Shown: one piece after another, positions 6,356-64,000 of the stretch | How the letters are laid out: every line of letters starts with the position of its first letter | Position numbering within the stretch: position 1 is the stretch's first letter | NCBI GenBank assembly: GCA_014905635.1 | Contig: JABVCE010000003.1 | Span: forward strand, 372,001 to 436,000 | Direction: 5' to 3' | Length of the DNA stretch: 64,000 bases | Origin: Scenedesmus sp. PABB004 | Taxonomy: Eukaryota | Translations under genes and position numbers: made by a program | Notes under the pieces: model-generated | What the model saw: only the letters and a program-made list of their open reading frames with translations | Databases searched by the model: none | Told to the model about the DNA's origin: nothing

Positions 6356-8084
6356 ATGTCGGGCGTGATGAAGCCGCCAGGCGCGGCCGCAAAGGCCGCC
6401 AACCTGCGCAAGCAGGCCCTGCTGTCGGGAGCCGGAGGCCTGGGCGGCGGCCTGCAGCCGATCAGCGACGACGACGCCGTGCAGTCGGGCTTCGACTGCT
6501 CCCGCCTCTCGCTGGACGCTGGCTCGCGCGCGCCCATCGAGCAGCACGCCTGGGACGAGTACTGGGACGAACGGCGCAGCTTGGAGCTGCCCGGCAGGCG
6601 CGGCGCACGCGAGCGCGGACGCTGCCGCGCCGCCGCCGCTGCCGCGCTGCCGCGACCGGCCGGCCGGCCGCTGCAGGGGCTCGTTCAACGTCTACACCGC
6701 CGGCGGTGAGGGAGCCGTGGTGCTCTGCCTGCACGGTGGCGGCTACACGGGCCTCACCTGGTCGCTCGTCGCCCGGCAGCTCAAGGACAGGCGCGCGCAG
6801 CGCGGCGCGGCCCGGCGCTGGTCGCACACGGCCGCGCGGCAGCCGCCCATTCGCACGCGCTGCCGCCACGGCGCAGGTACCGCGTCGTCGCGCCCGACCT
6901 GCGCGGCCACGGCGACACGCACACCGCGGACGACCTCGACTTTTCGGCCGAGGTGCGCGCCCGGGCCTGCGCCGGCGCGCCTGCGCGCACGCGCGCACCG
7001 CCGCCCACCGCCGCGCCGCGCGCGCCGCGCCCGCGCGGCTCGCCAGACGATGACGCGCGACATCGTGGAGCTGTGGAAGGCCCTCTTCGGCGGCGCGCCC
7101 GCCCGCACGCCCACGCTCGTGGTGGGGCACAGCATGGGCGGCGCGCTGGGCGTGTGGGCGGCGGCGACACGCGAGCTGCCGGGCCTGGACGGCGTCGCAG
7201 TCATCGACGTGGTCGAGGGCACCGCGCTGGGTGCGGCCGCCACGCGCGCCGCGCTGGGCGCGCGCGCAGCGCGCAGCGCCCCGCCGCGACGCGCGCGCCC
7301 CGCCGCCGCCGCCGCGCAGCCGCGCTGCCGCACATGATGGGCGTGCTGCACAGCCGGCCGGCGGCCTTCCCGAGCATGCAGGCGGCGCTGGAGTGGGCGG
7401 TGCGCAGCGGGACGTGCAAGAACCGGGAGATGGCGGGCGTGTCGCTGCCGTCGCAGCTGGTGCCGGCGCCCGACGGCGGCGGCGCGCTCGCGTGGCGCAC
7501 GCCGCTCGCGGCGAGCCGGCCGCACTGGGAGGGCTGGTACCGCGGCCTGAGCGACGCGTTCCTGGGCCTGCCGGTGCCCAAGATGCTGCTGCTCGCCGGC
7601 ACGGACCGCCTGGACCGCAGCCTCACAATCGGGCAGATGCAGGGCAAGTTCCAGCTCGTGCTCATGCCGACCGCGGGCCACGCGATCCAGGTGCGAGCGC
7701 GCGCGCGCGCCTGCGCGAGAGCGCGCCGCCGGCCCGCCGCCTGGGCCCCGGTGGGGCCGCCCCGAGCCCCGGCGTCGCGCGCCCACGCGCCGCGCCCCGG
7801 CCCGCCGCCGCCGCTGGCCGCCGCAGGAGGACGAGCCGCTGAAGACGTCTGAGTACCTGCAGCAGTTCCTGCACCGCCAGCGCATCGGCGAGCCGCCGAT
7901 GGTCATCCCGCGCGCGGCGCCGGGCGTGCGGCCGGTGCTGCCGGTGGTGGGCGGGCCGCTGTTCGCGAAGCCGCAGGCGCTGCAGCAGCAGCCGCCGCCG
8001 CTGGAGCCGCCGCCGGAGCAGCCGCCGCCGCTGGAGGCGTCGCCAGAGCAGCCGCGGTCGGCCGGTGCGCAGTCCAATATTTAA
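6356..8084 (+). CDS. PPME1: Protein phosphatase methylesterase 1 (PME-1), 6 exons
   Basis: Spliced product contains WDEYWD, LCLHGGGYTGLTW, APDLRGHGDT, VVGHSMGG, DVVEGTAL, W.GWY.GLS..FL, KMLLLAGTDRLDRSLTIGQMQGKFQL and GHAIQED.P. Introns 6598-6676 and 6791-6876 have GC donors. Confidence 0.93.
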
Positions 8085-8290
8085 CCGCCGACGCTGACCG
8101 CCCGCGCGCGCGTGAGCAGGGCCGCGCCGCACACAGCCACACAGATGCTCGAAGACAGATTATCTGACGACGACAAACGAAGAGCACGGGCTGCGCGGGC
8201 CCAAAACCGCAGTGCTCGCCGCGCGCAGCGCACAAAGACCGCCGAAACGCCGCTCGGCGCGAGCGGCCACGACACTGGAGCCCGCCGCCC

Positions 8291-12532: not shown

Positions 12533-15000
12533 ATGGCCCTCGCCGCCCGCACCACCCGCGCCGCCGGCACCGCCGGGCGCTCCAAGACGCGCGCCGGTGA
12601 GCGCCCCGCACGCCCCGGCCCCTCCCGGCCGCGGCAGGGCCGCTCCCGCGCCGCGCGGGCCGGCGCCTAGGGTTGCGCGCCTCACCGCCCGCCGCGCCCG
12701 CCGCCGCGCTCGCCGCCCACAGCGCCGCGCCTGGCGGGCGCCGCCGCGACCGCCCCGCGCCGCGTGGCGCTGCTCGTGCGCGCCGCCGCCGCGCCCGCCG
12801 CCGCGGGCGCCAAGGTCGACACCGCGCTGACCCCCAAGGCCCAGGGCTTCACCATGCCCGGTGCGCCGCGCGCCCGCGCGCCCCCTGCGCGCTCCCGCTT
12901 CGCCCTGCGCGCCGGCTGGGCTCGCGCCGCCGCCGCCGCCTGACCCGCCGCCGCCCTCCCTCTCCCTCGTTCTCTACCCTCTCTCTTTCACTCTTCCCTC
13001 TCCCTCTGTCTCCCGGCGCCCAGGCGAGTTTGAGAAGCACGCCGGCTGCTGGATGGGCTGGCCGTACGACAAGTACCTGTGGCGCGAGGACGCGGTGCCC
13101 GCGAAGAAGCAGTACGCCGCGGTCGCCAAGGCGATCAGCCAGTTTGAGCCCGTCACGATGTGGACCGACCCCTCCGTCGTCGACGAGGCCAAGCAGTACC
13201 TCGCCGACGCGCCCAACGTCTCCGGTGCGCCGCGCGGCGGCGCCGGCCGGCCGGCCGCCGCCCCGCGCGCGCGCGCCGCGTCGCGCCGCCTGCCCCGTGC
13301 TGGCGCGCTCACCCCCTCCCGCCCCGCTCCTCCCCTCCCCGCGCGCGCGCGCAGTCGAGGCCATGCCCATCAACGACGGCTGGCTGCGCGACTGGGGGCC
13401 GAGCTGCATCGCGCGCGTCGACCCCGAGACCGGCAAGCGCCAGGTCGCGGGCGTGCACTGGGACTACGACTGCTACGGTGCGCCCGGCAAGATCGCGCAG
13501 GGCCGCCCCGCGATGATGCCCAACTGGGACAAGGACTACAACGCGGGTGCGCGCCGCGCGCGCGCTGGCAGGGGCCGCCCGCGCACCCAGCGCCGGCCCG
13601 CCAGCGCGCTGCGCCGCCCGGCGGCGGGCGCGGGCTCCGAAGAACTGACCGCCGCGCCGCCCGCCCGCCGCGCCCCGCCGCCGCAGGCCGCCTGGTCCTC
13701 GAGCGCAACGGCCTGCCCGTGTTTGAGTGCCCCCTGCACCTCGAGGGCGGCTCCATCCACAGCGACGGCGAGGGGTGCGCCGCGCCGCCCGCGCCGCGCA
13801 CACTGCCCGCCCGCGCCCCACGCGCGCGGCGCGCCCGCTCCACACGCGCGGCCTGCTGACGGCGCCGTCCGCCCCCGCGCCCGTCCTCCCGCCCCCGCCG
13901 CCGCGCCCGACCTCCCTGCGCGCAGCACGCTGATGGTGACTGAGGAGTGCCTGCTCGACCCCAGCCGCAACCCCCACCTGGGCAAGGAGGGCATTGAGAA
14001 CCTGCTCAAGGAGTACCTCGGCATTGACAAGGTGCGTGTGGCGTGTGAGACTGTGGACTGACTGTGTTTTCACTGGTTGTCGACTGGTTGTCGACTGTGT
14101 GTCGACGGAGTGTGGGCGCCTAGCTGTGGGCACGCGGCGGCGCGCTCACGTGTGCGCGCCGCCGGCGGCGCCGGCGCCGGCAGGTGATCTGGCTGTGGAA
14201 GGGCATGGCGGGCGACACCGAGGTCGTCAACGGCCACGTGGACAACATGGCCTGCTTCATCCGCCCCGGCGTCGTCGCGATGAGCTGGACCGAGGACAAG
14301 ACCGACCCCCAGGTGCGCGCAGCAGGGCTGCACCACGCAGGGCCCGCGCCGCCGGGCGGGCCGCCGCCCCGCGCCCGCGCGCCCACGCTGCCCCGGCCGC
14401 GCTCACGCGCCCGCCCACCCGGCCACCCGCCCGCGCGCGCGCGTGCATGCGCGCAGTACGAGTGCTCCAGCCGCAACCTGGAGATCCTGGAGAGCACCAC
14501 TGACGCCAAGGGGCGCAAGATCGAGGTCATCAAGGTCCCCTGCCCGCCGCCCATGTTCCGCACCCACCACGAGGCCGACACCGTCGACGTGAGCGCCCGC
14601 CCGCGCCCGCCCGCCTGCCCGCTGCTCGGGGCGCCCCTGCGGCGCGCGCTTGCCGAGCGCCGAGCGTGGGCCGCCGCCGACGCCTGCCGCCGCCGACGCC
14701 CGCCGCCCGCCGCGCGCGCGCCGCCGCGCCGCGCAGCCGGAGCACATCACCAAGGGCTACGTCCCGCGCCTCGCGTGCGCGCGGCTGCCGGGGAGCTACA
14801 TCAACCACTACTGCGCCAACGGCGGCGTCGTGGTGCCCCAGTTTGGCTACCCGACCGACCAGCAGGCCATCGACGTGCTGCAGGCCGCGTACGGCCCCGG
14901 CTACAAGGTCGTCGGCGTGCCCGGCGGCACGCGCGAGGTGCTGCTCAACGCCGGCAACGTGCACTGCATCACGCAGCAGCACGTGCTCGGCGGCATCTGA
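12533..15000 (+). CDS. AIH: Agmatine deiminase (agmatine iminohydrolase) with predicted organellar transit peptide; about 9 coding exons; probable 5'UTR intron about 12273-12517
   Basis: GFTMP|GEFEKHAGCWMGWP, NDGWLRDWGP, LEGGSIHSDGEG, TEECLL.P.RNP, NGHVDNMACF, SYINHY.ANGGVVVPQF and GNVHCITQQ (catalytic Cys). Confidence 0.95.
14050..14108. repeat. Short degenerate tandem repeat (about ctggttgtcga) in an agmatine deiminase intron
   Basis: cactggttgtcgactggttgtcgactgtgtgtcgac; less GC-rich than the other introns. Confidence 0.55.
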
Positions 15001-15342: not shown

Positions 15343-17289
15343 TCACGTCGCTGGGCCCTGCGCGGCGGCGGCCTCGACGTCTGCGATGATCTGGCCCACG
15401 ATCCCCCGCAGCGCCGCCGCGCTCGGCGCGGCGCGGGCGCCGGCTGCCGCTGCAGCCTCCTCCGACAGCGCCAGCACGGAGCGCCCCTCCTCCGCGGCCT
15501 GCCCCAGCAGCGGGTCGAGCGGCACGCGGCCCAGCAGGCGCAGGCCGAGCTGCTCGCACATGCGCGCCGCGCCGCCGCCGGTGGGCAGGAAGACGTCGGT
15601 GCTCGCGGACACGTCGCCCAGGTCGCCGACGAGCCCGCCGCCCACGAGCGCCGCCTGCAGCGCCGCCTGCACCGCGGCGGTCACGTCGGCCTGCCCCGCC
15701 GCGAAGCGCAGCGCCGGCAGCGACACCTGCAGCGTCGACATGTTCTCCACCACGCCCAGCACCTGCGCCGGCCGGGCGGCGGCGGCGCTCGGGGCTCGGG
15801 GGCGTCGCGGCGCCCCGTGCGCGCACACGAGGCGCCCCACGCCCTGCCCCCCCCCCCCCACGCGCGCGCGCGCGCCGCCGCACCTCGAGCTCCACCTTTC
15901 TGCAGAAGCTGACCTCCTTGCGCACGTCGATGATCGACACCTCCTGCGCGCGCCACGCGCGGCGCCGGCCGCAGGCGTCGGCGGCGCGGGGGTCGGCGGC
16001 GCGCGCACGACTTGCGATGCGCCGCGCCGCGCATGCCGCGCCGCGCCCCGCGCCGCGCCGCGCCGCGCCTGGGGCGTCGTGACGATGACCGCCGCGTCGA
16101 GCCCGCCTGCGATGTTGCGCCCCGCGGACGCGCCGCCGCCCGGCGCGGCGGCGGCGCGCAGGAACTGGGCGATGGAGATGTGCTCGTCCGACGTCCCCGG
16201 CGGCGCGTCGACGACCAGGAAGTCCAGCGGGCCCCACACGACGTCGCGCAGGAACTGCTTGATCAGCGCGTTCTTGCTGCGCGGCGCGGAGGGCGGCGTG
16301 CGGCGCGGCGTGCAGGGTGTGCGGCACGTGCACGTGCGCGGCGACGGCAAAGGCGAGCGCGGCGCGCGCACCGCGGGCCGCGCCAGATGACGGCGTCGTC
16401 GGGGTTTGGCAGCATGAAGCCTGGCGGGCGCGGCGCGGCGCGGCGGCGGCGGCGGCGGCGGCCCTGGGCGCTCGGCGCGCGGCCGCACGCTCGGGCTGGC
16501 GGGCGCCGCGCGCTGCGGCTGGGCCACGCGGTCCGCGCCGCCGGCGCGCGGTGGTGCGCGGGCTGCGCCGGCGGGTGGTGCCTCTGCCGCGCCGCACCGA
16601 TGCTCATGACCGCGAGGTTGTCTTCCACGTACACCGGGGACCAGCCGCTCGCGCTCTGGTGCACCTCCTGGCCCTCCAGGCCGGTGAGCTTGGGTGCCGA
16701 GGGGCCGCAGATGTCAATGTCCAGCAGGCCGACCTGCGGCGGCCGGCGCGCGCGCGCGCGCCTCGCACCCCTCGGGCGGTCCAGGCCGGGCCCGCCGGGG
16801 CGCGGCCCGCCGGCACCGCCACGCGTGGCGCGTGGCGGCGGGCGCGCCGCGCGCGCACCTCCTTGCCCTGCGCCGCGAGCGCAAACGCGAGCTGCGTCGC
16901 AAAGGTGCTCTTGCCGACGCCGCCCTTGCCGGACAGCACCAGCAGCTTGTTTTTCACGCTCGCCATGCGCTCGGCAATGGCCGCCAGGTCTGCGGCCGGC
17001 CGGCGGGCGCGGCGGCGCGCCTGGGCGCCGAGCGGCGGCGCCCGGGGCCGGCGGCAGCTGGCACGCGCTGCGCGCACCCGGATCTGGGCCCTTGGGCGCG
17101 GAGGCGCACACGGCCTGGTTGGGGCAGCCCGCGCAGCCCGCCGCCTTGCCCGCATCCTCGCTCTGCGTCCCGGGGCAGTCTGCGCGGGGCGGCAGCGGCG
17201 CGATATCAGCAGCAGCGCCCGCGCCGCCGCGCGCCGGCTGGCGGCCGCTGCCACGCACGCGCAGGCGCGTTGCTCGGGACGTCGCCCAT
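15343..17289 (-). CDS. NBP35: Cytosolic Fe-S cluster assembly factor NBP35, about 9 exons
   Basis: [25 protein letters not shown] (N-terminal Fe-S Cys motif), [48 protein letters not shown]...[11 protein letters not shown] and GVVENMS. Confidence 0.95.
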
Positions 17290-22674: not shown

Positions 22675-22884
22675 GCTGCTGCTGCTGCTCGTGGGCGGCA
22701 GGTCAGAGCGACGGAAGGCAACTCGTGGCGGGCGGGCTGCGGTGTGCGGCGGGCCGAGCGGCCGCGCGCTGGCCGCGGGCGCGCCGGCGCCGCGCCGTCA
22801 GTCCACAGAACCCGGCCTGCCCCGCCCGCACGGCTCGTGCGCCCGGACACGAGCGCCACCCCTGGTCGCACACGAGTGTCGCTG

Positions 22885-22918
<34 letters not shown>

Positions 22919-29807: not shown

Positions 29808-32800
29808 ATGGCGTCGACGCCGGTGGAGGTCACGCAGCTGCTGCTGCACGCCCAGGACCCTGATGCCAACGTGCGCAGCCTGGCGGAGCAGAAGATCGCG
29901 CAGTTCCAGGAGCATGACTACCCCGGCTTCCTGGCGAGCCTCGCGGCGGAGCTGTCGAGCACGTCCAAGCCCGCCGACAGCCGGCGGCTCGCGGGGCTGG
30001 TGCTCAAAAACACGCTCGACGCCAAGGACGAGGCGCGCAAGGCCGAGCTGCAGGCGCGCTGGGGCGCCGTCGACGCGGGGCTGAAGACCCAGATCCGCGA
30101 CGCGCTGCTCAGCACGCTGCAGATGGAGCCCCAGGACGTGCGGCACACCGCCGCGCTCGTCATCGCCAAGGTCGCGGCGATCGACCTCCCGCGCCGCGAG
30201 TGGCCGGGCCTCATCGCGGCGCTGCTCGCCAACATGAGCGCGCAGCCGCCGCACCACGGCGTGCGCCAGGCGACGCTCGAGGTGCTCGGCTACGTGTGCG
30301 AGGAGATGGGCGCGGTCAGCGAGGAGGTGCTGTCGCCGGAGCAGATCAACATGATCCTCACCGCCGTCGTCGCGGGCATGCGGCCCGACGAGCCCAGCGA
30401 CGACGCGCGCCTCGCCGCGACGACGGCGCTGCAGAACGCGATCGAGTTTGCGGAGCACAACTTTGAGAACGAGCAGGAGCGCACCTACATCATGCAGGTG
30501 CGCGCACGCGCGGCGTGCCTGATGGGCGCGGCGCGGCCGGCGGCGCGGCCAGCAGCGCAGCGGCGGCACGCGCGGCCGGCGGCGCGCCCGGCGGCGCGGC
30601 GACGCGCGGGCGGGCGGCGCAGCTGCGGCCCCTGACCGCCGCGTTCGCGCCGCGCGCGCCGCGGCCGCCGCAGATGGTGTGCCAGGGCACGTCGGCGCGC
30701 GACGAGCGCATCCGCATCGCGAGCTTCACCTGCCTGCACGAGATCGCGACCAACTATTACGCGACGCTGCCGCCGTACATGACCGAGATCTTCAACATCA
30801 GCGTCAAGGCGGTGCAGGAGGACAGCGAGGACGTGGGCCTGCAGGCCGTCGAGTTCTGGTCCACGCTCTGCGACATCGAGCTCGACCTCGCCGACGAGGA
30901 CGACCCGACTGAGGCGCGGCGCGGCGGCGGCAGCGCGGCGGCGGCGCGGCGGCCGGGCGGCCGGGGTCGCCGGGAGGCGCTGCGCGCGCGCCGTGGCGCC
31001 GTGGCGCGGCGACGCCGCGCTGTGCTGCGCGGCTCACGCGCGGCGGTGGCGTCCCGGGTGCGCGCAGGTGAACCACCACTTCATCGCCGCGGTGGTGCCG
31101 CACCTCGTGCCGGTGCTGCTGAAGCAGCTCACCAAGCAGGAGGAGGGCCAGGAGCAGGACGACACCGCGTGGAACCTCGCCATGGCCAGCGGCACCTGCC
31201 TCGGCCTGCTCGCGCGCACCGCGCAGGTGCGGCGCGCCCGCCGCCGCGCCGCCGCGCCGCCGCGCCGCCGGCCGCTGCGCCGCGGGCGCGCTGCCGCGCC
31301 GTGGCCGCGACGCCGACACGGCCGCGCCGCGCGCCGCGGCAGGACGCGATCGTGCCGCACGTCATGCCGTTTGTGACGGAAAACATCGGCAAGAACGGCG
31401 GGCCCGACGACTGGCGGCTGCGCGAGGCGGCGACGTTTGCGTTTGGCAGCATCCTCGAGGGCCCCAGCCCGCGCTGCCTCGCCGACATCGTGCGCCAGGC
31501 CATGGGCTTCCTGCTCGCGGTGCGCGCGGGCGGCCGCGCCACACGCCGGCCACGACCCCGGCGGCCCGGCGGCCGCGCCGCCGCCGCCGCGCCGCCGCCG
31601 CCGCGCGCCGCCGACCCGCCGCCGCGGCCGCCCGCGCGTGCGCGCCGCCGGCAGGCGATGAAGGACCCTCACCCCTACGTGCGCGACACGACGGCGTGGA
31701 CGATCGGGCGCGTGTTTGAGTTCCAGCACGACGCGGGCAACAGCGACGTCCCGGAGCTCATCACGCGCGAGACGCTGCCGCAGGTCGCGCAGGTGCTGGT
31801 CGGCGGCCTCGGCGACAGCGTGCACATCGCGGTGCGCGTGTGCGACGCCGTCGGCCGCCTCGCCGAGGGCTTCGCGGGCTACCCGGGTGCGCCGCTGGTG
31901 GCGGCGCGGCGCGGGCCGCAGCCGCGCGCCCGCCCGCGCGCGCGCCGCGGCGCCGCGGCCTGCCGCCGCCGCCCACGCGCGCCGCCGCTCCGGTGCTCCG
32001 CGCTGCGCGCAGGCCAGTCGAGCCCGCTGTCGCCGTTCTTCAAGGAGATCATCACCGTGCTGCTCTCCACCGCGCAGCGCAGCGACCCCAGCGCCGTCGA
32101 CAGCACGCGGCTCGCGATCAGCGCGTTTGAGGCAATCAACGACATGGTCCGCGCCGCCAGCCCCGACACGCTCGACACGGTCGGCCAGCTCACGCCCGTG
32201 TTCCTGGCCGAGATCAACAAGACCTTTGCCATGCCCGCGGGCAGCGGCGAGCTGCGCGAGAAGCAGGCGGAGCTGCAGGGCCAGCTCTGCGGCGTGCTGC
32301 AGGCGCGGGCCGCGGCGGCAGCGCGGCGCGGCGCGGCGAGCGCGGCGCGAGCGCCGCTGCCCCGCGCACGCGCGCGCGCGCTCACGCGCCGCCCGCGCCG
32401 CGCCGCGCCGCGCGCCGCGCCCCTCTCTCCTGCGTGCGCGCAGGTCATCATGCAGAAGCTGTCCGAGGTGGAGCAGTACAAGGCGGCGGTGCTGCAGTAC
32501 GCGGACCAGATCATGGAGACGCTGCTGCGCGTGTTCAGCGGCCAGGCGGGGCAGGCGAGCGTGCACGAGGAGGCGATGCTCGCGGTCGGCGCGTTCACGT
32601 ACGCCTGCGGCCGCGCGTTTGCAAAGTACCTGCCCGCCTTCTACCCTTTCCTCAAGATGGGGCTCATGAACCACGCAGAGTGGCAGGTGCGCGCGCGTGT
32701 GCGACACCGCGGCTCCGCTGTGTGTGGGTCTGTGGGTGTGTGGGTGGGCGTGGGTTGGCAGATGGGACCTGCCCGCGGCTGGTGCGGGGGCGGCGGCCGT

Positions 32801-39753: not shown

Positions 39754-42700
39754 TCACAGCTTGTCCTCGTACTCGGACAGCGCCGCGGGCTCGGGCTTGA
39801 TGCCCTTGCGCTTGCGGATGTCGAGCACGAGCTGGTGGGTCTGGCTGCCGGCCTGCTGCGGGTCGGCCTGCATGATGTCCCAGTGGTCAAACACGCACTG
39901 CGGGAAGGCCTGGCCCGACGTCGCGGCGCGCAGCGTGGCGGTGAAGCCAAACGACTCGATGACGGGGAGGTAGGCCTTGATGTTGTACATCGGCGTGCCC
40001 GGGCGCTGCATCTCCTCAAACACCATGCCGCGCTTCTGGTTCAGCACTGCGCGGCGCGGGCGCGGCGCGGGGCGGGGCGGGGCGGGGCGGGGAGGGAGGG
40101 CGGCGGGCGGGGGCGGGGCGGGGGAGGTCGGCGCGGGCGGCGGGCGGCGGGCGGCAGCAGCAGCAGCGGCGGCTGCGGCTGCACCAGCGGCTGCGGCTGC
40201 AGCAGCGGCTGCGGCAGCAGCGGCAGCGGCTGCGCACCCGAGTAGATGCCGCCGAGCGCGTTCTCGGGCGCCTGGATCTCGACCAGGTACACCGGCTCGC
40301 ACAGGCGCGGCTTGGCGGTCAGCTCGGCGGCGTAGAGCGCGCGGCGGCAGGTGGGGATGATCTGGCCGCCGCCGCGGTGGATCGCGTCGGCGTGGAGCAC
40401 GACGTCGTGGAACTCAAACACAATGCCGCGCATGTTCTCCTCCGCGAGCACGCCCTCCTTGGTGGCCCACTGGAACGCGGCGACGCAGGAGTCCTTGATC
40501 TCGTTGAGGTACTGCACGCCCTTGGCGACGTCGACGAGCACGTTGGGCCCGGTCGTGTCGGGGCCGAAGCACCAGATCTTCTTGGTCAGCTCCTTGTCCC
40601 ACCCAAACTCCTCGCTCATGAGCTTGCTGCGGACCTTGGGGTCGTCGCGCGGGCCGACCTTGCCCTCGTCGATCGCCTCGGCCAGGCCGTCCTCCATCGG
40701 CCGCGCCTGCGCGGCGCGGGGGCGAGGGCGGCGGGCGGGCGGGCGGGCGGGCGGGCGGGCGTGAGCGCGCGCGCGCGAGCGGGCCGGCGGCTGCGCCGGC
40801 GGGACGGGACGGCGCCCGCGCGCGCGCCCGCGCGCCCTGCGCGCGGCCGGACCTGGAGGTACAGGCGGTTGTGCTTGTTGGGCGACTTGGACATCACGGT
40901 GTGGTCGCTCGGCGCCGACACGGTCTCGCGGAAGGACACGACCGGCTCCGACACGCGGATCTCGGCGCCGCCCATGAAGTCGTCCTGCAGGTCCTTCAGG
41001 CAGATCTCGAGGTGCAGCTCGCCGGCGCCTGCCGGGGCGGGGCGCGCGCGGGGCGGCGGCGGCGCGTGAGCGGCAGCGGGCGTGGGGCGCTGCTGGGCGC
41101 CGCCGCGGTCGCGCTGCTGCCGCGCGCAGCCCCGCCGCTGCCCGCCCGCTCCCGCTCTGCTGCGGGCTGCTGCCCGCCCGCTCCCGCTCTGCTGCGGGCT
41201 GCTGCCCGCCCGCCGCGCGCGCTGCCGCCCGCCCGCCGCGCGCGCTGCCGGCGCGCGGCGCGCACCGGCGATGATGTGCTCGCCGGTCTCCTCGATGATG
41301 CACTGCACCATGGGGTCGGAGCGCGCGAGGCGCTTGAGGCCCTCCACCAGCTTGGGCAGGTCGGACGCGATCTTGGGCTCCACTGCCACGCGCACGACGG
41401 GGCTCACGCTGAACTTCATCGCCTGCGGTAGAGCAGCAGCAGGGGCAGCAGCAGGGGCAGCAGGACAGCAGCATGAGCGCGGCGCCGGGCGCGGCGGCAG
41501 GCGCGGCCGCCGCTGGCCGCTGGCGCCGCGGCGGGCGAGGCGCGCGGGCGGGTGCGGCGGGTGCGGCGGGGTGCGGGTGCGGCGGGCGCGCGCCTTCATG
41601 GGGTGCGCGTCCTCGTTGCCCTCGTTGGTGATGGTCGCGGTCTTGGTGATGAACTGGTCGAGGCCGACCAGCGCGACGGTGTTGCCGCACGGCACGCTCT
41701 CGACCGCCTCCTGCTTGCGGCCCATGCAGAGCACGGTGCGCTGCACGCTCTTGTTGTAGAGGTCCTTCTTGGTGCCGGGCTCGTAGTTGGGGCCCATGAT
41801 GCGAGCCTGGGCAGGCGTGGGCGCGCGGGCGGGTGGGTGGGTGAGCGGGTGAGCGGGTGTGAGCGCGGGCGCAGGCGCGGGCGCAGGCGTGGGCGGGGCG
41901 CGCGCGGCCGCGCCGGGCGCCGCGCGCCAGGAGCCGCGCGCCAGGAGGGCCGCCGCCGGCGCCGCCGCCGCGCGGCCGCCGCGCGCCGCGCCGCGCCGCG
42001 GCGGGCGCGCGCACCTTCTTGCCGGTCGCGACGGTGCCGGCGAAGACGCGGCCGAACGCGACGAAGCGGCCCTTGTCGCTGGTGGGGATCATCTTGGACA
42101 CGTACATCATGAGCGGGCCGTCGGGGTCGCAGTTGCGGATCGCGGTCGCGTACGCGTCGTCGAGCGGGCCCTCGTACAGCGTGTCGACGCGGTACTTCTG
42201 CGCAAACGCGGGGCTGGGCAGGTGGTAGATGATCATCTCAAGCAGCGCCTCGCTCGCGGGCAGCCACGTCTGCGCGGCGCGGCGGCGGCGGGGGTGGCGG
42301 CGGCGGGGAGCGCGCGCGTGAGGCCGGCGGCGCGGCGGCGGCGGGGCGGGCGGTGGCGGGCGCTGCCGTGCGCCGCGCGCTGCCGTGCGCCGCGCGCGCT
42401 GCTGCGGTGCTGAGCCGCGCTCGTGCGGCGCGGCGTCGCGGCGCGCCTGCATGACGCGCTTCATGAGCGGCTTGCCGATGAGCTCCTTGTCCTCCGACTT
42501 GAGCTTGTGCAGGACGTTGATCTTCTCGAGCATGGCAAACAGCTTCTCCTTCTTGTCCTCCATCGCGAGGTCGATGACCTGCGCGCGGCGGCGGCGGCGC
42601 GGCGGCGTGAGCGCGGGCGTGAGCGCGGGCGCAGGCGCCGGCCCCTGCTGCACGCCCGCCCGCCGGCCCGCCGGCCCGCCGGCTGTGCCCCCGGCTGCCC

Positions 42701-44644
42701 CCGCGGTCGCGCGCGGCGGGGGCGCACCGTCTTGATGGGGTTGTAGCAGAACTGCACGAAGCCGCGCACGCAGGTCTTGGAGTCGGTCGCCTTCTTGGTC
42801 CACTTCTTGGTCGCGGGGTCAAAGAAGTTGTCGCCCCACAGCTTCTCCATCATCTTGGCCTCGTCCGTGCCAAACTTGGCGGCGTACATCTGGGCAAACG
42901 TGGTCAGCGTGAACGCCCACGCGTGCAGGCCGGCCGAGAACGACACGGTGCCCTTGTCGGGGTAGACCTGCGCGGCGGCGGGCGCGCGCGGCGCGCGTGA
43001 GCGGCGCGCGTGAGCGGCGCGTGGCGCGCGGCGCGCAGCGTGCGGCGCTGGGCTGCTGCCCGGCGCGCGGCCCGCGCGCTGCTGCTGCCGCGGCGCTGCT
43101 GCTGCCGCGGCGCGCGCCTGGAGGTCGCCCATGGCCTCGTCCTGGTAGGTCGCGAGGATGACGTTGGCGTTCTCGATGACGCGCAGGTAGGTCGTGTAGG
43201 CCTCCTCGCCCTCGAGCTTGAGCTCCAGGAAGCAGCGGTCCATCTTGTTCACCGTCAGCACGGGGCGGATGCGCTCCGCGAGCGCCTGGCGCAGCACCGT
43301 CTCGGTCTGCACGCACACACCCTCCACGCAGTCGACGACGACGAGCGCGCCGTCGGTGATGCGCAGCGCGGCCGTGACCTGCGCGGCGGCGCGCGCGCGG
43401 CGCGGCGTGAGCGCGCGGCGCTGCGGCGCTGCGGCTGCTGCTGCCGCTGCTGCCGCTGCTGCTGCGGCGGCGTGCTGCTGTTGCCGCGACGCTGCTGCTG
43501 CTGCGACGCTGCTGCTGCCGCCGCTGCGCCGCCGCGCTCGGCGCGCGCCTCGGACGAGAAGTCGACGTGACCGGGCGAGTCGATGAGGTTGACGAGGAAG
43601 GCCTGGCCGTCGCGGGCCTTCTTGAAGGCCTTGAGGCTCTCGTCGCTCATCTCGTAGTACAGGGAGATGCCGGTCGACTTGATCGTGATGCCGCGCTCCT
43701 GCTCGTCCGCGCGCGTGTCGGTCAGGCGCGCGTCGCCGGCCTGCGCGCGGGCGCGGGCGCGGGGTGCGGGGTGGCGGCGGGGCGGGTCGCGGCGGGGCGG
43801 GTGAGGGCGGCGCGGGTGAGGGCGGCGGCGCGGGCGGGCGAGGGCGGCGCGCTGCCGGCGCGCGCGCGCCGCTGCGCCCGCTGCGCCGCGTGCCCGCTGC
43901 GCCCGCCGCGCACCTGCTCGACCGCCATGATACCGGCGGCGGCCACCAGGGAGTCCGTCAGCGTCGACTTGCCTGCGGGCGCGGCGGGCGCGGGCGCGGC
44001 GGTCGGGCCGGGCCCCGCCGGCCACGCGGCGCAGCGCGGCGAGCCCGCGCGTCGCCCGCGCGTCCGGCCGTGTCGCGCGCGTGGTGCGCGCACCGTGGTC
44101 GACGTGCGCGATGACGGACATGTTGCGGATGTTGTCCTTCTTGTCCATCTGCGGCGCGCGGCGCGGCGCGGCGCGTGGGCGCGCGCGCGCGGCCGCCGCC
44201 AACTGCTGCGCCGGCCGCCGGCCGCCGCCGGGCGCGCGCCGCGGGGCGCCGCGGTCGCCCCCGGCCCGCGCTGTCGGCCCTTCCAGCCCGCGCCGCGGCC
44301 CTGGGCGCGCGCGCCGGGCAGCCCGCGCCGGCCGCCGCCTCGGCCCGCAAACGCCGGGGCCACTGCTGCCGATCAAGGCCGCCCGCCGCCCGCTGGCGCG
44401 CCGCGCCGCCCGCCACGGCGCGCGGCCGGGACGGCCCGGGCGCGCGACAGCCGGGACGCCATAGCGGCGGGGCGCGCGGCCGCGGCGCGCGCCGACAGGG
44501 GCGGCCTCGCATGCGGCGCCTGCCCGCCGGCGCCCGGCGCCGCCGCGGGCCCGCCCCGCGGCCGCGGTCGGAGGCTGGAGGTCCCGTGGCCCTGATCCGA
44601 GCGCGCACCAGCTTGCGGATCTCCTCAATGGTGAACTTGACCAT
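39754..44644 (-). CDS. EEF2: Eukaryotic translation elongation factor 2, 13 exons
   Basis: [74 protein letters not shown], diphthamide loop [30 protein letters not shown] and YEDKL*. Confidence 0.98.
41137..41213. repeat. 32-bp tandem duplication (about 2.3 copies) within an eEF2 intron
   Basis: gctgcccgcccgctcccgctctgctgcgggct repeated head to tail. Confidence 0.8.
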
Positions 44645-50600: not shown

Positions 50601-53600
50601 CGCCGCGCGGGCGAGCGACGGCCTGGCGGAGGACAACGCCACGATGCTGCGCATGCTCGCGTGCGACGGGCTGCTGCAGGGCGCGCTGCTGGTGGCGGTG
50701 CAGGCGTTCCTGGCGCGCGCGGTCGGCGCCGGGCTGCCGCTTGAGCGCAGCGCCGCGGGGGGCCACAGCTCGGCGAGGGCGCACAGGAGCTGCTGGGGCG
50801 GCTGGAGGAGGAGAAGCAGCTGTCGCTGCGCAGGTTCCTGCTGCTGGTGCGTGGCCGCGGGCCGGGGCCGGGCGCAGCGCCTGCCTGCCGCGCCCGCGCC
50901 CGCGCGCGCAGCGGCGCCTCCGCCGCCGACGCGCGCTCGCCGCCGCGCGGGCGGCGCCGCGCAGGTGCTGCGGGCCCTCGTGGGCGGCGTCTCCGCCTAT
51001 CATCGCTTCCTGCTGGCGCTGCGCGACGAGGAGGAGCGCGACGAGCAGGTGGCGCTGGAGCTGGGCGCCAAGGGCGACACGGTGGCGCTGGCGCCGGGCT
51101 TCTACGAGCAGGCGCGGCGCGCCGCGCGCACGCGGCGCGCCGCTGCAGCGCCGTGCCGCCGCGCCGCCGCCGACCGCGCCGCCGCCGGCCACGCCGCCGC
51201 CGACCGCGCCGCCGCCGGCCATGCCGCCGCGCCGCCGCGCCGCCGCCGACCGCGCCGCCGCCCCGCAGGCGTGCCTGGCAGCGGCCGTGCCGCGGGAGGA
51301 GTCGGAGGTTTGCTGCAAGAAGCACCACGCGGCGCGGGTGCAGGCTGAGGCGGAGGGCCGGCCCTTCAGCAAGTTCAGCCCCGACCTGGCGCCCAGCGAG
51401 GTGCTCTGCGAGCTCACCGCCGCCGGCGTGCTGTGCATCGACGTCGAGCAGGTGCCCCCTGAGCGGGCCCGCGCCGCGGCTTCGAGCGCGAGCCGCCGCG
51501 CGCACGGCGCGCTCCGAGCCGCGCGCCGCCGCCGCCGCGCAGGAGGACGCAAGCCTGGTGCGGCGCTACCTGCTGCAGCCGCCGGCGCAGCTGGCCGAGG
51601 CGCAGGGCCCCGAGGTCGGCAGCAGGGAGGGCCTGGCAGCGCTCGTGCGCGAGCTCTTTGGTGCCAGCAAGGTATGTGCGGCCCGCTGCCGGCTGCCGGC
51701 GCTGGGGCGCGCCTGGGCTGCTGCACGCCGGCCCCGCCGGCGCCGCGCTCAGCGCCACGCTCAGCGCCGCGCTCAGCGCTGCTGCTCCGCCGCCCGCCCG
51801 CCGCGCCCCACCCGGCGCAGCACGAGGCGTTCAAGCGGGCGGGCCTGTCGCTGCCTGCCGAGGAGGAGCCCGTTGAGGGCAAGCGCGGCACGTGGGAGAA
51901 GCTGCGGGCAGACCTCATGGCCGCCGCGCTGCTGGTCGAGCACGCGCGCGAGCTGGCGGGCTTCATCGCAGAGTGCGAGCGCTGGCTGGGCTTGCCTGGC
52001 GTGAGCCTGGAGCGGCACGAGCGGCACGAGGTCCAGGGCGCAATGAGAGGTGAGCACGCCGCTGCCGCCGCCGTGGCGGCAGTGCCGCGCGCGGCGCCGC
52101 CCCGTCGCGGCGCCGTCGTCGACGCGCCCCGCCGCGCCGCCGCGCGCCTCCGCGCTTGGCAGTGCTGTTGCAGCTCCGCGTGGCCGGGCGCACCAGCGCG
52201 CTAGAGCTCCTGCAGCAGCTGTTCAAGCGCGATGCCGCGGCGCTGCGCGCGGCCAGCGAGGCGGCGGACAAGGCGGAGAAGGCGCTGGCCGACGGCGAGG
52301 CCAAGCCCGCCAGCAAGGGCAAGGACAAGGACAAGGACGCCAAGGAGGGCAAGCTGCAGCGCATCGCCGAGCGCAAGGCCAACGTGCGCACGGGCTGCGG
52401 GACGGGCACGCGCCGCTGCGCTCTGGCGCCGCTGCACACGGCACACGATCACGCGCCGCCCGCGCCGCCCGCCTGCGCGCAGCTCGAGCGGCAGCTGGAG
52501 GAGGTCGAGGCCCAGCTCAGTGCCATGGCCAACGAGCTGGCGGAGCTCGGCGCCCAGGCGGACAGCTACGCCGACCTCGTCACCGCCACGCAGGCCTCCA
52601 AGACCGGCAAGGTCGACCCCATGCAGCAGGTGCGGCGCCGGCGCAGCGCCCGCCGCGACCGCCGCCACGCCCGCCGACGCCCGCGGCGCCCGCCCGCGCA
52701 GATGCTGACGCTGATGTGCGGCGCGCTGCTGGCGCCGGCGGAGGGCACGCGCGAGGCGCTGACGGCGCAGCTGCGCGACACGGTATCGCTGTCGCGGCGC
52801 TCGCTGTTTGAGCTGGAGGTGGCCGCGCTGCACGCGTGCACGCGCGCGCGCGCGCGCATGCTCGATGCGATGTGGGCGCACCGCCACCCGGCGGCGCTGC
52901 TCCAGCTCGGCGCCGCGGCACTGCAGCACAGCCTGCGCGAGGGCGTGAGCAAGAGCGCAGGTGGGCGCCGCGCGGCGCGCCCGCGCGCGGCGACGCCGGC
53001 CAGCGCCGCGCCGCCGCGCCTGCGGCCGCCGCCGACGTGCCGCCGCGGCCGCCGCCGCCGCGGCCGCCGCCGCCGCCGCAGAGGAGGAGCTGCTGGCGCT
53101 GGTCGCGAGCGAGCCGGCGCCGGAGCCGGCCGGCGGCGGCAAGGGCGCGGCCAAGAAGAAAAAGAAGAAGGGCGGCGGCGCTAAGCCCGCGGCCAGGAGC
53201 GCACGCACGGCCACGGCCGACTCGGACGCCGAGGAGGAGGAGGACGACGACGGCGACGCCGGCGTCCGCGCCGGCAGCGGCGGCGGCGGCGCGGGCGCCG
53301 CCGAGCCGGCGCCGGCTGGGGAGGCGGCGCCCGAGAGCGGCGTCCCGCAGGTCGACATGAGCAAGCTGGAGTGGTCCGTCGCGGGGCAGGAGCGCGCCGA
53401 GCCCAGGCACGCGCCCGGCGCGGCGCGGCCGGGGCGGCCCGGCAGCGGCGCCGAGCCGCCCGCGGCGCGCGCGGGCCCCGACGGAGCGCCGCCGGGCGGC
53501 GGCCGCGCCGGCAGCAGCAGCGTCGGCGGCGGCAGCAGCAGCGGCGGCGGCGGCGGCGCGGAGCGCGCGGCGGCGCCGGGCGCGCGCGACGCGGAGCGCA

Positions 53601-56600
53601 CCTACGTGTACGGCCTCCGCCAGCAGGGCTGGGTGTGCACCAAGTGCGGCGAGGTGGGGCACCAGCCGCGCAACTGCCCTGTGCCGGCGTGCGGCAAGTG
53701 CGGCGCGGTCGGCCACGTCGCGGCCGAGTGCGCGGACGCGTGCCGCAAGTGCGCGCGTGTGCACAGAGGCGCCTGCGCCAAGATGTGCAACGCCTGCGGC
53801 CGGCGGGGGCACGTCTCGCGGGACTGCCCCGACGTGCCCTGCACCGCGTGCGGCGGCTTCGGGCACGTCTCGCCCGACTGCCGCGCGTGCAGCAACTGCA
53901 AGCTGCACCACGCCGTGGGGCAGTGCCCCGGCTTCTGCGGGCGCTGCAACGAGGCGGGGCACGACAGCGCCGAGTGCCCCCGCGGCGCGGCGGCGCCGCA
54001 GGCGGCGCGCGCCGGCACTGGCGCCGGCGCCACGGCCGCGCCGCGGCCGGCCGGGCGCCCCGCGGGCCGCGCGGCGCCGCCGCGGCCCGAGGCCGTGCGG
54101 CTGGAGCCGCCGAGCGACGCGACGGAGCAGCGGGGCAACGACCTCGTGTCGGCGCTGATGGGCCGCGGCGACGCGGCGAACGCCTTCGCGATGGCGCTGT
54201 TCGGCGACCCGGCGCAGCTGGGGCTGCTGGCGCGCGTGCCGCAGCAGGACCTGGACGCGATCCTGGCGCAGCCCCACCCCGAGCAGCTGCTCGGCGAGGT
54301 GTGGGCGCGGCACCGTGGCGCCGCCGCCGCGGCGGCGCCCGAGGCGGGCGGCAGCGCCGGCGGGCAGCCCGCGGCGGCGGCGCAGCGGCGCACGCCCAGG
54401 GGCGCGCGCGACCGCGCGCCGCCGCCGGGCCAGCAGGGCGAGGCCGCGGCGGCGGCGCACGACCGCGAGCGCCGCGTGCCGCAGCCCGCGCCCGTGGCGG
54501 TGAGCATCCGCGAAGCGCACGTGCGCGACGCGGGCGGCCACCACCAGCCCGCGTCAGGCGGGGCGCCGGCGGCGGCGCCCGACGGCCCCGGCCACGGCGG
54601 CGCGCCGTCGCAGCCCGCGCCGGGCGCGGCGCCCGGGTGGGGCGCGCCGGCGCCGCACCTCGCCCCCGACCTCGCGGGCCCGGCGGAGCCGTGGATGCTG
54701 TGGTGCCGGCCGGGCGTGGAGCACGTGGTCCGGCAGCTCGCCACGCTGGCGCCGGACGTGCACGCGCAGGTGCTGGCGGGAGTCCGCACCGCGGCTAGCG
54801 ACGAGGAGCTCGTGCCGGCGCTGGAGCAGACGACGCGCAGCGTGCTGAAGGTGGCGCTGGCGTCCCAGCAGGAGGGCGCCCTGACGCCGGCGCAGGACTT
54901 CTTCCTGTGGCTGGCCGAGCTGATCGAGGCGGCAAAGCGCCAGGGCTACACGCCGCCGCGCCTCGCGCCGGCGCCCGCGGCGGGGCCGCCGACCGCGGCG
55001 CACGCGGCGTCGCCCGGCTACGGCGCGCTGCCGCCGCACCTGCAGGCGCGGCCGGCCGGCGCGGCGCCGGCGCCGCAGGCGTCGCCCGGCGCGGGCGGCG
55101 GCAGCTCCGACTCGGACGACGACGCGCTCATGCACACGCTCGTCGGCGGCGACGCGCCCGGCGCGGGCGGCGCGCCCGGCATGGCGCCCGCGGCGCGCGC
55201 GGGCTCGTGGGCGCCCGCCGGCAACGGCGGCGGCGCCGGCGGCGCCGCCGCGCTCGGCGCCGCCGACTTCCCCGCGCTCGGCGAGGAGCCGGGCGTGCTG
55301 CGCGTCGGCGCGGCGGGGCTGGCCAACGCGACGGGCGAGTACAACTGCTTCCTCAACACCGTGGTGCAGTGCCTCTGGAGCTGCCGCGACTTCCGGGCGC
55401 AGGTCTTTGACATGCCGCCGCACCAGAGCGAGCACCCCGTCGTCGACGCGCTCATGCGGCTCTTCATCAGCATGCGCCGCGCCGAGGCAGCCAACGCGCC
55501 GAGCGCGAGCAGGCGCGGCCGCGCGGCGCGCGGCGCAGGCCGCGCGCGCGCGGCGGGCGCGGCGGCGGGGGCGCGCGCGGCGCCCCGGGACGCGGCGCCG
55601 CGCTGCACGTGGGCTGACGCGCCGCGCCGCGCCGCGCCGCGCTGCACGCCCGGCGCTGCGCAGGGCGGTCGTCAACCCCACGGCGCTGCGCGAGGCGCTC
55701 GCGGCGGCGACGCACTTCAAGGCGGCCGAGATGAACGACGCGAACGAGCTGCTCGACACGCTCTACGAGTGCTTCCGGCAGAGCCAGGCCGCGGGCGGCG
55801 TGCCCGGCAGCCGCGGCATCCTCGTCGACGGCGTGTTTGGCCTGCAGCTCAACGAGGCCATCGTCTGCACGCGCCCCGAGTGCGGCAAGGTCACGCACAA
55901 GATCCCCAGGCGCGCCGCGCGGCGCGCCGCGGCCCGGCGCGGGCCCGCCGACGCCCGCCGACGCCGCGCGCCTCGCCGCCGACGCCCGCCGCCCGCACCG
56001 CCCGCACGCCGCGCGCCGCCGCGGCGCAGCCACTGGGAGCACATGCTGGTGGTCAACACCACGGCGCTCGGGCTCGCGAGCTTCAGCTGCGACAACCCGC
56101 AGAACATGGGCGCCCTGCTGCGCGTGCTGTTTGACCAGGAGCAGAAGATGTGCGACAAGGACGAGGGCGGATGCGGCACGCCATACGTACGGCGCGCGCG
56201 GCGCGCGCGCGCGGCCGCGGCGGCGCGCCAGCACGCCCGCGCGGCGCGGCTCACGTGCCCCCCGCCCCGCCGCGCCGCGCCGCGCCTCGCCGCGCAGCCG
56301 GTGCACCGCCAGCTGCAGCAGCCGCCGAGCGTGCTCACGCTGCAGCTCGTGTGGAACCAGGACGCGAGCGGCGAGGAGATCGGGACGGCGCTGGGGCTGG
56401 TGCAGGAGCGGCTGGACATCACGAGCATGTACGAGCGCGGCTGCCTGACCGCGGCGACCACGTTTGAGCTGTCCAGCGCCGTCGCGTACTACGGCCAGCA
56501 CTACATGGCCTTCGTGCACAGCCCCAAGCTCGGGCAGTGGCTGCTCTTCGACGACGCGAGCGTGAGCGCGATCGGGAGCTGGCGGGACGTCGTCAAGAAG

Positions 56601-57718: not shown

Positions 57719-59031
57719 TCACTCGGCCGCGTCCGCACCCCCCGCCGCGGCCGCCGCCGCCGCCACCGGGCGCGCCTGATAGTCGCCGGGCTGCAAGCTT
57801 GCCACGTCGTCGGTCAAATAGTGTGCCCACTGGTCGACGATGGCGTCGCTGCCGTACCTGCACGGCGGCGCGCCCCGCGGTCAGCGTGTGGGCGCCGCGC
57901 GCGGCCAGGCCGCCGCACAAGCGGGCGGGCGCGCGCGCGCTGGCGCGGACGGGCGCACGCGCGGGCGGACGCACCAGGGGCCGAAGAACTTGAGCTTGGC
58001 CCCGAGCGGCGAGTGGAAGCAGCCGTCGATGTCGACGTTGATCGCGCCCGGCAGGTGCGCGGCGGGCAGGGGCACGATGAAGTCGCCCCACACCTCGGCG
58101 TCGCCGCACACCTGCGCGTAGCCCGCGCCCGCAAACTTGGCCAGCAGGCTGCCCTCGCCCCGCAGCTTCGCGCCCTTGACGAAGCGGCCGCCGATCGTGA
58201 CGTACTTGATCTGGGTTCAGGCGCGGGCGTGCGCGGGCCGGCGTGAGCGCGCGTGGGCCCGCGTGGGCCGTGCGCGAGCCGGCCGCGCCGGCTGCAGCCG
58301 CGAGCGCGCCCGCCGCCGCCCGCCGCGCCGCGCCGCGCCTCTGGGTGGTGCGCGCCGGGGCAGGCGTCCTGGACCCAGGTGAGGATGCCCCGCGTCTGGT
58401 CCACCACGCCCTCCGCGCCCGGCGGCGGCGGCGCGTGCGGGCTGCCGAGCGTGACGTAGCGGTCCACGCCCTCGATGCCTGGCCGCCGGCGGCGGCAGGG
58501 GCGCCAGCGGCGGCGGCGGCGGCGGGCGCGCGCGTCGAGGAGAGGGGCGCGCTGCGGGCGGGGGCGCGCCTGGGCCGCGGCGCGCGCCTCACCCACCCCC
58601 ACACCTCACCCCACCCACCCGCCCGCCCGCCCGCGCCCAGTCGCACCAAAGTCGAGCAGGAACACGCGCCCCAGCCACCCGCCGGCGCTGTGGCAGAGCA
58701 GCGTGATCGGCGCGCCGTCGACGTCGCGCTTGAGCTCGTCCAGCGCTGCCGCGACGCGCGTGAGGTACCAGTCGACGGCCGGCCGCGGCGAGAGCGTCCC
58801 CGCCCACCACGCGCGGTCGGTCAGCGCGGCGGCGTTGCGGCCCCAGTCGGCGCGGCCGACGCCGACGACGCGCGTCGTGAGCCCCCGCGCCGCGAGGTGC
58901 GCTGCGAGGCCGGCGTAGTCGGCGGCGCTGTTGCCCAGCCCCGGCAGCACGAGCACGCCGCGGCTCGGCGCGGCGCCGCCGTCGGCGCCAGCTGCTCCTG
59001 CAGCAGCGGCGGCGCCGCTGGTGGGGCGAGA

Positions 59032-62974: not shown

Positions 62975-63954
62975 ATGGGGGACGCCTCCGAGCGACCGGT
63001 GCGCGCTTGGGCGGGCCCGGGCGCTCGCCCCTGTGATTCCAAGCGCGGCGCGGCGCCCGGCCGCCCACGCGTCCTGCCGGCCGCAGATCTTTTGCGGCAA
63101 CTTTGAGTATGACGCGTCGGAGCGCTCCATCGTGGAGCTGTTCGAGAAGTACGGCAAGGTGACGCGCATCGACATGAAAACTGGTGAGCCCCGCGCCCAC
63201 AAGGCACATCTCGCGCCGCCCGACCACGGAGGCTGATCAAGTGACCGGCAACCATCGCGGGAGCACGCGCTCTGGCACCCGGGCGCCCGCCGCGGCCGCC
63301 ACGGCGGAGCGAGCAGCGGCGGCGGCCGCCAACGCGAGGCAGCGACTGTCGGCAGCGCCCCTTGGCCCATCCGGCATCCCTCCCAGCGCATCACCCCCAC
63401 CGCATCCCGGTGCCCCACCAGCCATCACCGGCAGCCGCGCATCCCTCCCCCGCACGACAGCGGCAGCCGCCGACTGCCGCCGAGCGCCAGCCGCCAGCGG
63501 CAGCGGCATCCCGCAGAGCGGCAAGGCCATCATGCGCACACACACGCATCCGTCTCTCTGCTGCGGGCCACATGCTGCGCATCGCGGCGCCGTTCGTGCC
63601 CAACCCCCATCCCCGCTGCCCTGCCGCTCACCCCGCCGCTCCGGCGAGGTATGGCGTCCTCCTGCTCTGCACCCCCCCCCCCACACACACACCTCACACC
63701 ACTACCCCACACCACTCGCACGCGCACGCACGCACCTGCACCTGCACCGGCGACCGGGCAGCGGGGGCGGCTCGGGCGTGGATCGCCGCCACGGGGCGCG
63801 GCTGCGCTTGCTGGCCGGCGCCGCGCGCCTGCCGCTGACGCCGCCCGCCCCTGCCCGCCCGCCCGCCCCCCCCCCTTGTGGCGCACGCAGGCTTCGCGTT
63901 TGTCTACATGTCTGACGAGCACGACGCCAAGGACGCCATCCGCGCCCTCGACAG
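62975..63954 (+). CDS. RS-subfamily SR splicing factor (RS31/RS40-like), 5' part only; exons 62975-62998, 63087-63183, 63891-63954
   Basis: MGDASERP|IFCGNFEYDASERSIVELFEKYGKVTRIDMKT G|FAFVYMSDEHDAKDAIRALD matches RRM1 of plant RS-subfamily proteins (RP.F.GNFEY...D.KSG.AFVY.EDERDAEDAIR.LD). Confidence 0.92.
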
Positions 63955-64000
63955 GCAAGACCTGGCCGCCGCGGCGCGCTGCGGGGAGCAGCGGCGGCAG

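Follow-up and report, generated by a model that had tools for sequence, protein, structure and literature searches.

In the genome of the chlorophycean alga Scenedesmus sp. PABB004 (contig JABVCE010000003.1), a 64-kb stretch of DNA (positions 372,001 to 436,000; referred to here as the window) carries many introns that begin with GC instead of GT. Homology to proteins anchored 42 introns in the window, of which 28 have a GT donor and 14 have a GC donor. All 14 GC introns have GC at +1/+2 and AG at the 3' end, and the exon before each of them ends in AG. They are probably ordinary U2-type GC–AG spliceosomal introns, which are unusually frequent in this window of a nuclear genome with a GC content of 78.5%. 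Positions are numbered within the window, and exon–intron boundaries are marked by a slash.

Sequence, gene models and prediction methods

Scenedesmus sp. PABB004 belongs to the Scenedesmaceae, Sphaeropleales (NCBI taxonomy), and its assembly is listed with 39.8 Mb, 77 contigs and 78.5% GC (table in PMC12571836). The GC content of the window is 76–81% in every 4-kb bin and the sequence contains no N. An Rfam scan of the 64-kb window gave no RNA families and hence no small nuclear RNA.

Proteins were aligned to the genomic sequence with our own dynamic-programming aligner, in which introns are allowed in three phases and the permitted donor dinucleotides can be set (GC on or off). In low-complexity regions the GC-permitting aligner makes spurious GC introns (in the USP run at 51817, 53013, 53150, 57150 and other positions), and therefore only junctions within well-aligned domains were counted. 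The USP reference was P0241, the homologue from Scenedesmus sp. NREL 46B-D3. An agmatine deiminase-type gene and the NBP35 gene were modelled from the Pfam profile coordinates of tiled translations, followed by enumeration of the junctions. Six genes were modelled in total: PME-1 (6377-7895), the deiminase-type gene (13017-14979), NBP35 (15463-17150), importin-beta (29808-33960), eEF2 (39757-44644) and the USP catalytic domain (55334-56666). The resulting homology-anchored set of 42 introns is biased towards genes that had been picked out by an initial annotation of the window.

Coding potential was scored with a 3-periodic second-order Markov coding model against a non-coding model for which GT introns were the sole training data; the gene being tested was excluded from training. 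A simple hidden Markov model was built on the coding models as a gene finder, with separate matrices for GT and GC donors. Its predictions were passed through a confidence filter, which retained introns of 50-400 nt with both 45-nt flanks above 0.3 bits/nt and an interior below 0.05 bits/nt.

GC introns located by protein comparison

The initial annotation had listed 17 GC donors, described as mostly AG/GCGCG, and had stated that the conserved proteins can be reconstructed only if GC donors are used. All 17 positions read AG/GC on the strand given; 15 of them are AG/GCGCG, while the donor at 33256 is GCACG and that at 63955 is GCAAG. The need for GC donors was borne out by protein comparison at 14 of the 17 sites (five in importin-beta, four in eEF2, two each in PME-1 and USP and one in NBP35). 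The remaining three (51112, 58338 and 63955) are without homology support and are described below. Spliced alignment gave exactly the listed shares of four GC introns among 12 in eEF2 and five among ten in importin-beta.

The eEF2 gene and its GC introns are as follows.

39757-44644, minus strand: eEF2 gene, 13 exons and 12 introns (8 GT, 4 GC).
43379..43548, minus strand: intron 4, GC–AG, 170 nt, not a multiple of 3.
42968..43117, minus strand: intron 5, GC–AG, 150 nt, coding potential -0.46 bits/nt in the reading frame.
42270..42446, minus strand: intron 7, GC–AG, 177 nt; a GT 9 nt upstream would remove the conserved VMQ.
41423..41593, minus strand: intron 9, GC–AG, 171 nt, donor aag/GCGCGC.

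With GC donors permitted, eEF2 was colinear with the Monoraphidium minutum protein over 845 amino acids with 12 introns and no gap columns, and the aligner placed the GC donors exactly at 43548, 43117, 42446 and 41593. Restriction to GT donors produced 110 gap columns, with two read-through inserts of 50 and 57 residues, the loss of three conserved residues and a single pair of very small false introns. Five references led to an identical set of four GC donors, even under a 4-point penalty for GC.

The importin-beta gene contains the following GC introns.

29808..33960, plus strand: importin-beta gene, 11 exons and 10 introns (5 GT, 5 GC).
30914..31067, plus strand: intron 2, GC–AG, 154 nt; its removal is required by the deposited protein.
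32303..32443, plus strand: intron 6, GC–AG, 141 nt; a GT 9 nt upstream would remove VLQ.
32998..33144, plus strand: intron 8, GC–AG, 147 nt; with GT donors only, a 49-residue read-through insert results.
33256..33417, plus strand: intron 9, GC–AG, 162 nt, donor cag/GCACGC; a GT 9 nt upstream would remove VMQ.
33518..33673, plus strand: intron 10, GC–AG, 156 nt, phase 1, found with the deposited protein and four other references.

The importin-beta model is 100% identical to the deposited KPNB1 [Scenedesmus sp. PABB004] (890 amino acids), and 890 of 890 residues were reproduced only with five GT and five GC introns at the listed positions. Four further references agree, two of which come from transcript-length contigs. 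The residues VLQ beside the donor at 32303 occur in the deposited protein.

A GT lies exactly 9 nt upstream of each of the donors at 42446 (minus strand), 32303 (plus strand) and 33256 (plus strand), in the context GTCATGCAG/GC twice and GTGCTGCAG/GC once. Use of these three GT sites as alternative 5' splice sites would remove three residues in frame.

The remaining five GC introns with protein support lie in three genes.

55513..55663, plus strand: intron in the USP catalytic domain, GC–AG, 151 nt, one reference, recovered by the gene finder.
55910..56029, plus strand: intron in the USP catalytic domain, GC–AG, 120 nt, one reference, recovered by the gene finder.
6598..6676, plus strand: PME-1 intron 1, GC–AG, 79 nt, donor cag/GCGCGG, one of four references (P0257).
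6791..6876, plus strand: PME-1 intron 2, GC–AG, 86 nt, donor cag/GCGCGC, three of four references, recovered by the gene finder.
15944..16068, minus strand: NBP35 intron, GC–AG, 125 nt, donor cag/GCGCGG.

For PME-1 intron 1 the sole in-frame GT option (6559) loses 13 aligned residues. Several nearby GC donors fit almost equally well, and the exact site at 6598, which the gene finder recovers, was picked by consensus. For intron 2 (6791) the one dissenting reference places a GC donor at 6815, and the GT-only alternative (6821) adds ten residues. The NBP35 junction at 16068 (TTPQ/EVS) is colinear with PDB chain 6g2g_A at residues 166/167-168; the match of the second exon is short and weak on its own (E = 0.74), and the GT options lose five residues or add about 20. 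The other five introns of NBP35 are all of the GT class.

Donor and acceptor signals of the two classes

In the 42 introns the GT and GC donors share the consensus from +3 to +5 and differ in the end of the exon. The base at +3 is G in 26 of 28 GT donors and 13 of 14 GC donors, that at +4 is C in 27 of 28 and 14 of 14, and that at +5 is G in every donor of both classes (28/28 and 14/14). At the acceptor, G at -4 was found in 24 of 28 GT introns and 14 of 14 GC introns, and C at -3 in all introns (28/28 and 14/14). The species has the donor consensus G/GTGCG, and GC donors carry this signal with C in place of T at +2. By contrast, an exonic AG precedes 14 of 14 GC donors versus 12 of 28 GT donors (Fisher p = 0.00019), so that the rule given in the initial annotation (always after an exonic AG) applies to every homology-anchored GC donor. 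C at -3 is present in 13 of 28 GT donors and 11 of 14 GC donors.

The initial annotation had also held that compensation for the altered +2 base is absent, as GCAAG(T) is not seen at most sites. This part is not upheld. The GT donors of this species are themselves GTGCG and not GTAAG, and the GC donors match them at +3, +4 and +5 in 13, 14 and 14 of 14 cases and always follow AG, in contrast to the GT donors; compensation is thus present in a local form. The compensating context is AG/GCGCG rather than AG/GCAAGT because the GT consensus of the species is GTGCG.

The donor box of U12-type introns is [AG]TATCCTT. It is absent from all 14 GC donors, in which positions +3 to +7 are rich in GCGC and +3 to +6 are without T. 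The GC content is 89% in both classes, the mean length is 156 nt for GT and 142 nt for GC introns, and phase 0 occurs in 17 of 28 and 9 of 14. Their lengths are multiples of 3 in 6 of 28 GT introns and 8 of 14 GC introns. The eight are 42968-43117, 42270-42446, 41423-41593, 32303-32443, 32998-33144, 33256-33417, 33518-33673 and 55910-56029. This excess could be due to chance or to a tolerance of retention at weaker donors.

As A is infrequent, so is the heptamer AGGCGCG, with 81 occurrences in the window when the two strands are taken together. Of the 18 occurrences on the sense strand of the six genes, 13 are donors, three lie in exons and two lie inside introns. Chance is excluded as the source of the AG/GC donor pattern.

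In the six modelled genes the introns are much richer in GC (89%) than the exons, and the coding sequence has GC1 of 0.61-0.73, GC2 of 0.39-0.52 and GC3 of 0.96-0.98. Stops are rare, and many introns are therefore open in frame and hidden within long open reading frames. A short AT-rich patch at 10747-10828, with translations rich in Asn, Tyr and Lys on both strands, stands out from the rest of the window at about 78% GC.

Coding potential and gene prediction

Exons scored +0.59 bits/nt in coding potential (minimum +0.07, n = 47) and GT introns scored -0.44 bits/nt. Read in frame, the GC-class segments scored -0.43 bits/nt, with values from -0.69 to -0.21. They do not differ from the GT introns (p = 0.82) and differ from the exons (p = 1.8e-8), and thus resemble introns of the GT class and not exons. 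Among the 14 GC introns, six (170, 154, 79, 86, 151 and 125 nt) have a length not divisible by 3, and the reading frame is kept only if they are removed.

The gene finder was run independently of the site list of the initial annotation, leaving out one gene at a time. It recovered 41 of the 42 introns exactly, including all 14 of the GC class; the one miss was a GT donor of the deiminase-type gene. When GC donors were disallowed, the five genes with such donors lost 162, 156, 59, 19 and 99 bits, the one gene lacking them lost 0 bits, and the gene finder was forced onto GT donors 9 to 271 nt away.

Frequency in the window

Over both strands of the window the gene finder predicted 138 introns, 99 GT and 39 GC. 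Outside the six modelled genes these comprise 71 GT and 25 GC introns, many of the GC calls lying in weakly coding stretches or in gene merges. After filtering, 17 of 72 introns in the window were of the GC class, with 23 GT and 13 GC introns inside the six genes. The earlier manual count of about 17 in roughly 100 introns is compatible with these ab initio estimates (17/72 to 39/138), and the share of GC–AG introns in the window can fairly be put at about one sixth to one third.

By a post hoc grouping the GC donors seem to be unevenly distributed among genes, with 4 of 12 in eEF2, 5 of 10 in importin-beta and 0 of 6 in the deiminase-type gene. The predicted gene at 21284-24320 has 0 of 8, and those at 18301-21073 and 24463-26131 have 0 or 1 of 8 each.

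Comparison with metagenomic eEF2 loci

The comparison of orthologous introns was made with metagenomic eEF2 loci, mostly from intron-poor picoalgae. No sequence of the same species was present among the 80 loci, the best being 87% identical at the protein level. As a control, the 39 of these loci with at least 4300 bases were aligned with GC permitted under a 4-point penalty; most of them contain a single intron or none, and near-duplicates are numerous. None of their 43 introns was of the GC class, whereas the eEF2 gene of the window retained its four GC donors under the same penalty.

The comparison of orthologous introns, which the initial annotation had proposed, gave one informative shared position, the others being uninformative. 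In locus L074 a 52-nt GT intron (gag/GTACTC) at codon 115, phase 0, occupies the position of the GC intron with its donor at 43548. This single case would fit a change from T to C in an old intron. The GT intron at codon 411 of eEF2 in the window has counterparts at the same position in loci L023 and L047.

Further candidate sites and the deiminase-type gene

Two of the three listed donors without homology support (51112 and 58338) are plausible GC–AG introns on the predictions of the gene finder. The acceptor of the third lies past the end of the window.

51112..51268, plus strand: candidate GC–AG intron upstream of the USP domain, 157 nt, ab initio prediction only.
58211..58338, minus strand: candidate GC–AG intron in a hydrolase-like gene, 128 nt, ab initio prediction.
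63955..64000, plus strand: candidate GC donor cag/GCAAGA in an RRM/SR-like gene, acceptor past the window end.
13017..14979, plus strand: agmatine deiminase-type gene (PAD_porph), six introns, all with consensus GT donors, serving as an internal contrast.

The candidate at 51112 misses the confidence filter at its downstream flank, and the USP search gave no protein of the species itself as a reference. The candidate at 58338 misses the filter at one flank and has in-frame GT alternatives at 58374, 58404 and 58407; a Pfam search of both exons that flank it matched no family. In the deiminase-type gene the Pfam profile position jumps from 100 to 112 at the junction of intron 2 (13478 versus 13547, plus strand), where the GT donor favoured by the gene finder lies 69 nt downstream of the consensus pick. 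The donor is GT either way.

Discussion

The positions of donors and acceptors, the AG rule and the intron-like composition of the GC class follow directly from the alignments and counts given above. Removal of the GC segments from the mRNA is inferred from the colinearity with the proteins. The initial annotation had linked the GC donors to the extreme GC content, and this fits both the sequence and the published work that ties abundant GC–AG introns to genomic G+C (PMC3033335; PMC4028052). In the mechanism that we consider likely, a strong GC-biased substitution pressure would convert T at +2 into C. The C at +2 would survive where the AG at -2/-1 (mostly preceded by C at -3), together with G at +3 and G at +5, leaves enough base pairing to the U1 5' end, and later to U6, for recognition; where the exon does not end in AG, selection would remove it. 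This mutational history, including the origin of the GC donors and the U1 pairing, is modelled on what is established for GC–AG introns elsewhere.

Several points weigh against the interpretation as ordinary GC–AG introns or narrow its scope. The case is built on comparison of DNA with proteins and not on transcripts, and the deposited importin-beta model is itself an annotation. Other GC donors served to train the GC matrix of the gene finder, and the test is to that extent not independent of the hypothesis. The filtered predictions outside the six genes comprise 32 GT and 4 GC introns; none of the four follows AG, and they are not trusted. Their donors (430, gcc/GC; 36957, gtc/GC; 50713, ctg/GC; 57214, ccc/GC) are wrong predictions or, alternatively, departures from the AG rule. 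The share of GC–AG introns is an estimate from one 64-kb window, and the mutational origin and the U1 pairing are assumed from known GC–AG introns. The eight GC segments whose lengths are multiples of 3 add a further point (8 of 14, versus 6 of 28 for GT introns), as several of these are free of stops and are read through in GT-only mode without a break of frame.

These eight segments might accordingly be in-frame low-complexity coding insertions, or be retained often, which would lower the true count of GC–AG introns; the high intron retention reported alongside GC donors in Emiliania (PMC4028052) would be in keeping with this. We regard this as very unlikely. All eight are non-coding by their composition (-0.39 to -0.69 bits/nt in frame, against at least +0.07 for exons), and they start with AG/GC[GA]CG and end with GCAG as other introns do. 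Five eEF2 and five importin-beta references are without any insert, the deposited importin-beta among them omits the segments, and the six other GC introns would cause a frameshift if read through. Extremely improbable is an error of assembly or polishing at +2, or an editing of C to U in the RNA, with true donors of the GT class. Random errors would not strike 14 of 42 donor T positions, nor would they depend on the -2 base of the exon (p = 0.00019 for the association with AG), and the public annotation is built on the same bases.

A share of 14 in 42, far above the usual 1%, could also point to a spliceosome altered in this lineage that reads +2 loosely (through the U1 5' end, U1-C, the U6 ACAGA box, PRP8 or a base modification), as the initial annotation had proposed. 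To our knowledge, standard spliceosomes process GC–AG introns in all eukaryotes studied. Moreover, GC donors occur only after AG (14/14 versus 12/28), as would be expected from compensation with ordinary recognition and not from a relaxed reading. The 5' 11-mer of U1 is reported as canonical in the published GC-rich algae. For the abundant GC–AG introns of Aureococcus and Micromonas pusilla, Iwata and Gotoh left open an explanation by base modifications or by proteins of the U1 snRNP (PMC3033335). An altered spliceosome is improbable here, and a relaxed reading of +2 is not needed. The clustering of GC donors in eEF2 and importin-beta, the multiple-of-3 lengths of eight of the 14 and the three GT sites 9 nt upstream together raise the possibility of a regulatory class. 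In that case the GC introns would be functionally distinct, with weak, retention-prone or alternatively spliced donors that are perhaps read by a lineage-adapted U1 snRNP; this proposal is tentative and we consider it unlikely.

Interpreted as ordinary GC–AG introns, the GC class is of modest scientific novelty and of practical weight for annotation, the nuclear genome of PABB004 being among the most GC-rich on record. Gene models restricted to GT donors will be wrong in many genes of this or of similarly GC-rich genomes. For eEF2 and importin-beta, such models add 29 to 57 false residues or lose three for each intron missed, and the stop-poor reading frames conceal these mistakes. The window also provides a data point at the GC extreme. 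Despite a GC content of 78.5%, GC donors have no higher a share than in Aureococcus (69.5%) or Emiliania (65%); this, together with the restriction of GC donors to sites after AG, argues that the share is set by selection on U1 pairing and not by composition alone.

Abundant GC–AG introns have already been published for GC-rich algae, and the pattern is here extended to a chlorophycean alga. A literature search, with subscription journals outside its coverage, found no paper on GC–AG introns in Scenedesmus or, judged by title and abstract, on splicing in PABB004. Among the papers listed for Sphaeropleales, including Raphidocelis, Tetradesmus and Chromochloris, GC–AG was likewise not mentioned.

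Comparison with known GC–AG introns

In plants and animals ordinary GC–AG introns make up about 1% of introns (Pucker and Brockington, 2018, PMC6310983; Frey and Pucker, 2020, PMC7072748), and genomic GC content is reported to correlate with that of the splice sites (Frey and Pucker, 2020, PMC7072748). Major non-canonical sites are given as 7,090 of 124,435 for Chlorella sorokiniana and 19 of 67,746 for Monoraphidium neglectum (PMC6310983). The introns of the window resemble ordinary GC–AG introns in being U2-type, in having C at +2 in an otherwise strong donor context and in the interchange of GC–AG and GT–AG at homologous positions. They differ in their share, which is 15 to 30 times higher, and in their context, which is AG/GCGCG and not AG/GCAAGT.

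Closer parallels are found among GC-rich algae. Iwata and Gotoh (2011, PMC3033335) report GC–AG shares of 39.6% for Aureococcus anophagefferens (69.5% GC) and 22.2% for Micromonas pusilla (65.9% GC), compared with 7.7% for Chlorella sp. and only 2.7% for Micromonas RCC299, and give a canonical U1 5' end for both Micromonas and Aureococcus. As in Aureococcus and M. pusilla, a nuclear genome of high GC content is combined with a GC–AG share in the tens of percent and an unchanged AG acceptor. Unlike these, PABB004 belongs to the Chlorophyceae (Scenedesmaceae), its genome has 78.5% GC against 66-70%, and its share comes from one window.

In Emiliania huxleyi about 60% of donors are GC, which Feldmesser et al. 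(2014, PMC4028052) ascribe to a GC content of 65%, and these donors were validated by expressed sequence tags, RNA-seq and RT-PCR. There GC donors are the major, RNA-validated class, whereas in the window GT is the major class and the GC donors are recognized from DNA and protein comparison alone. In both algae GC replaces GT while the acceptor stays AG, and ab initio annotation based on GT–AG introns mispredicts genes.

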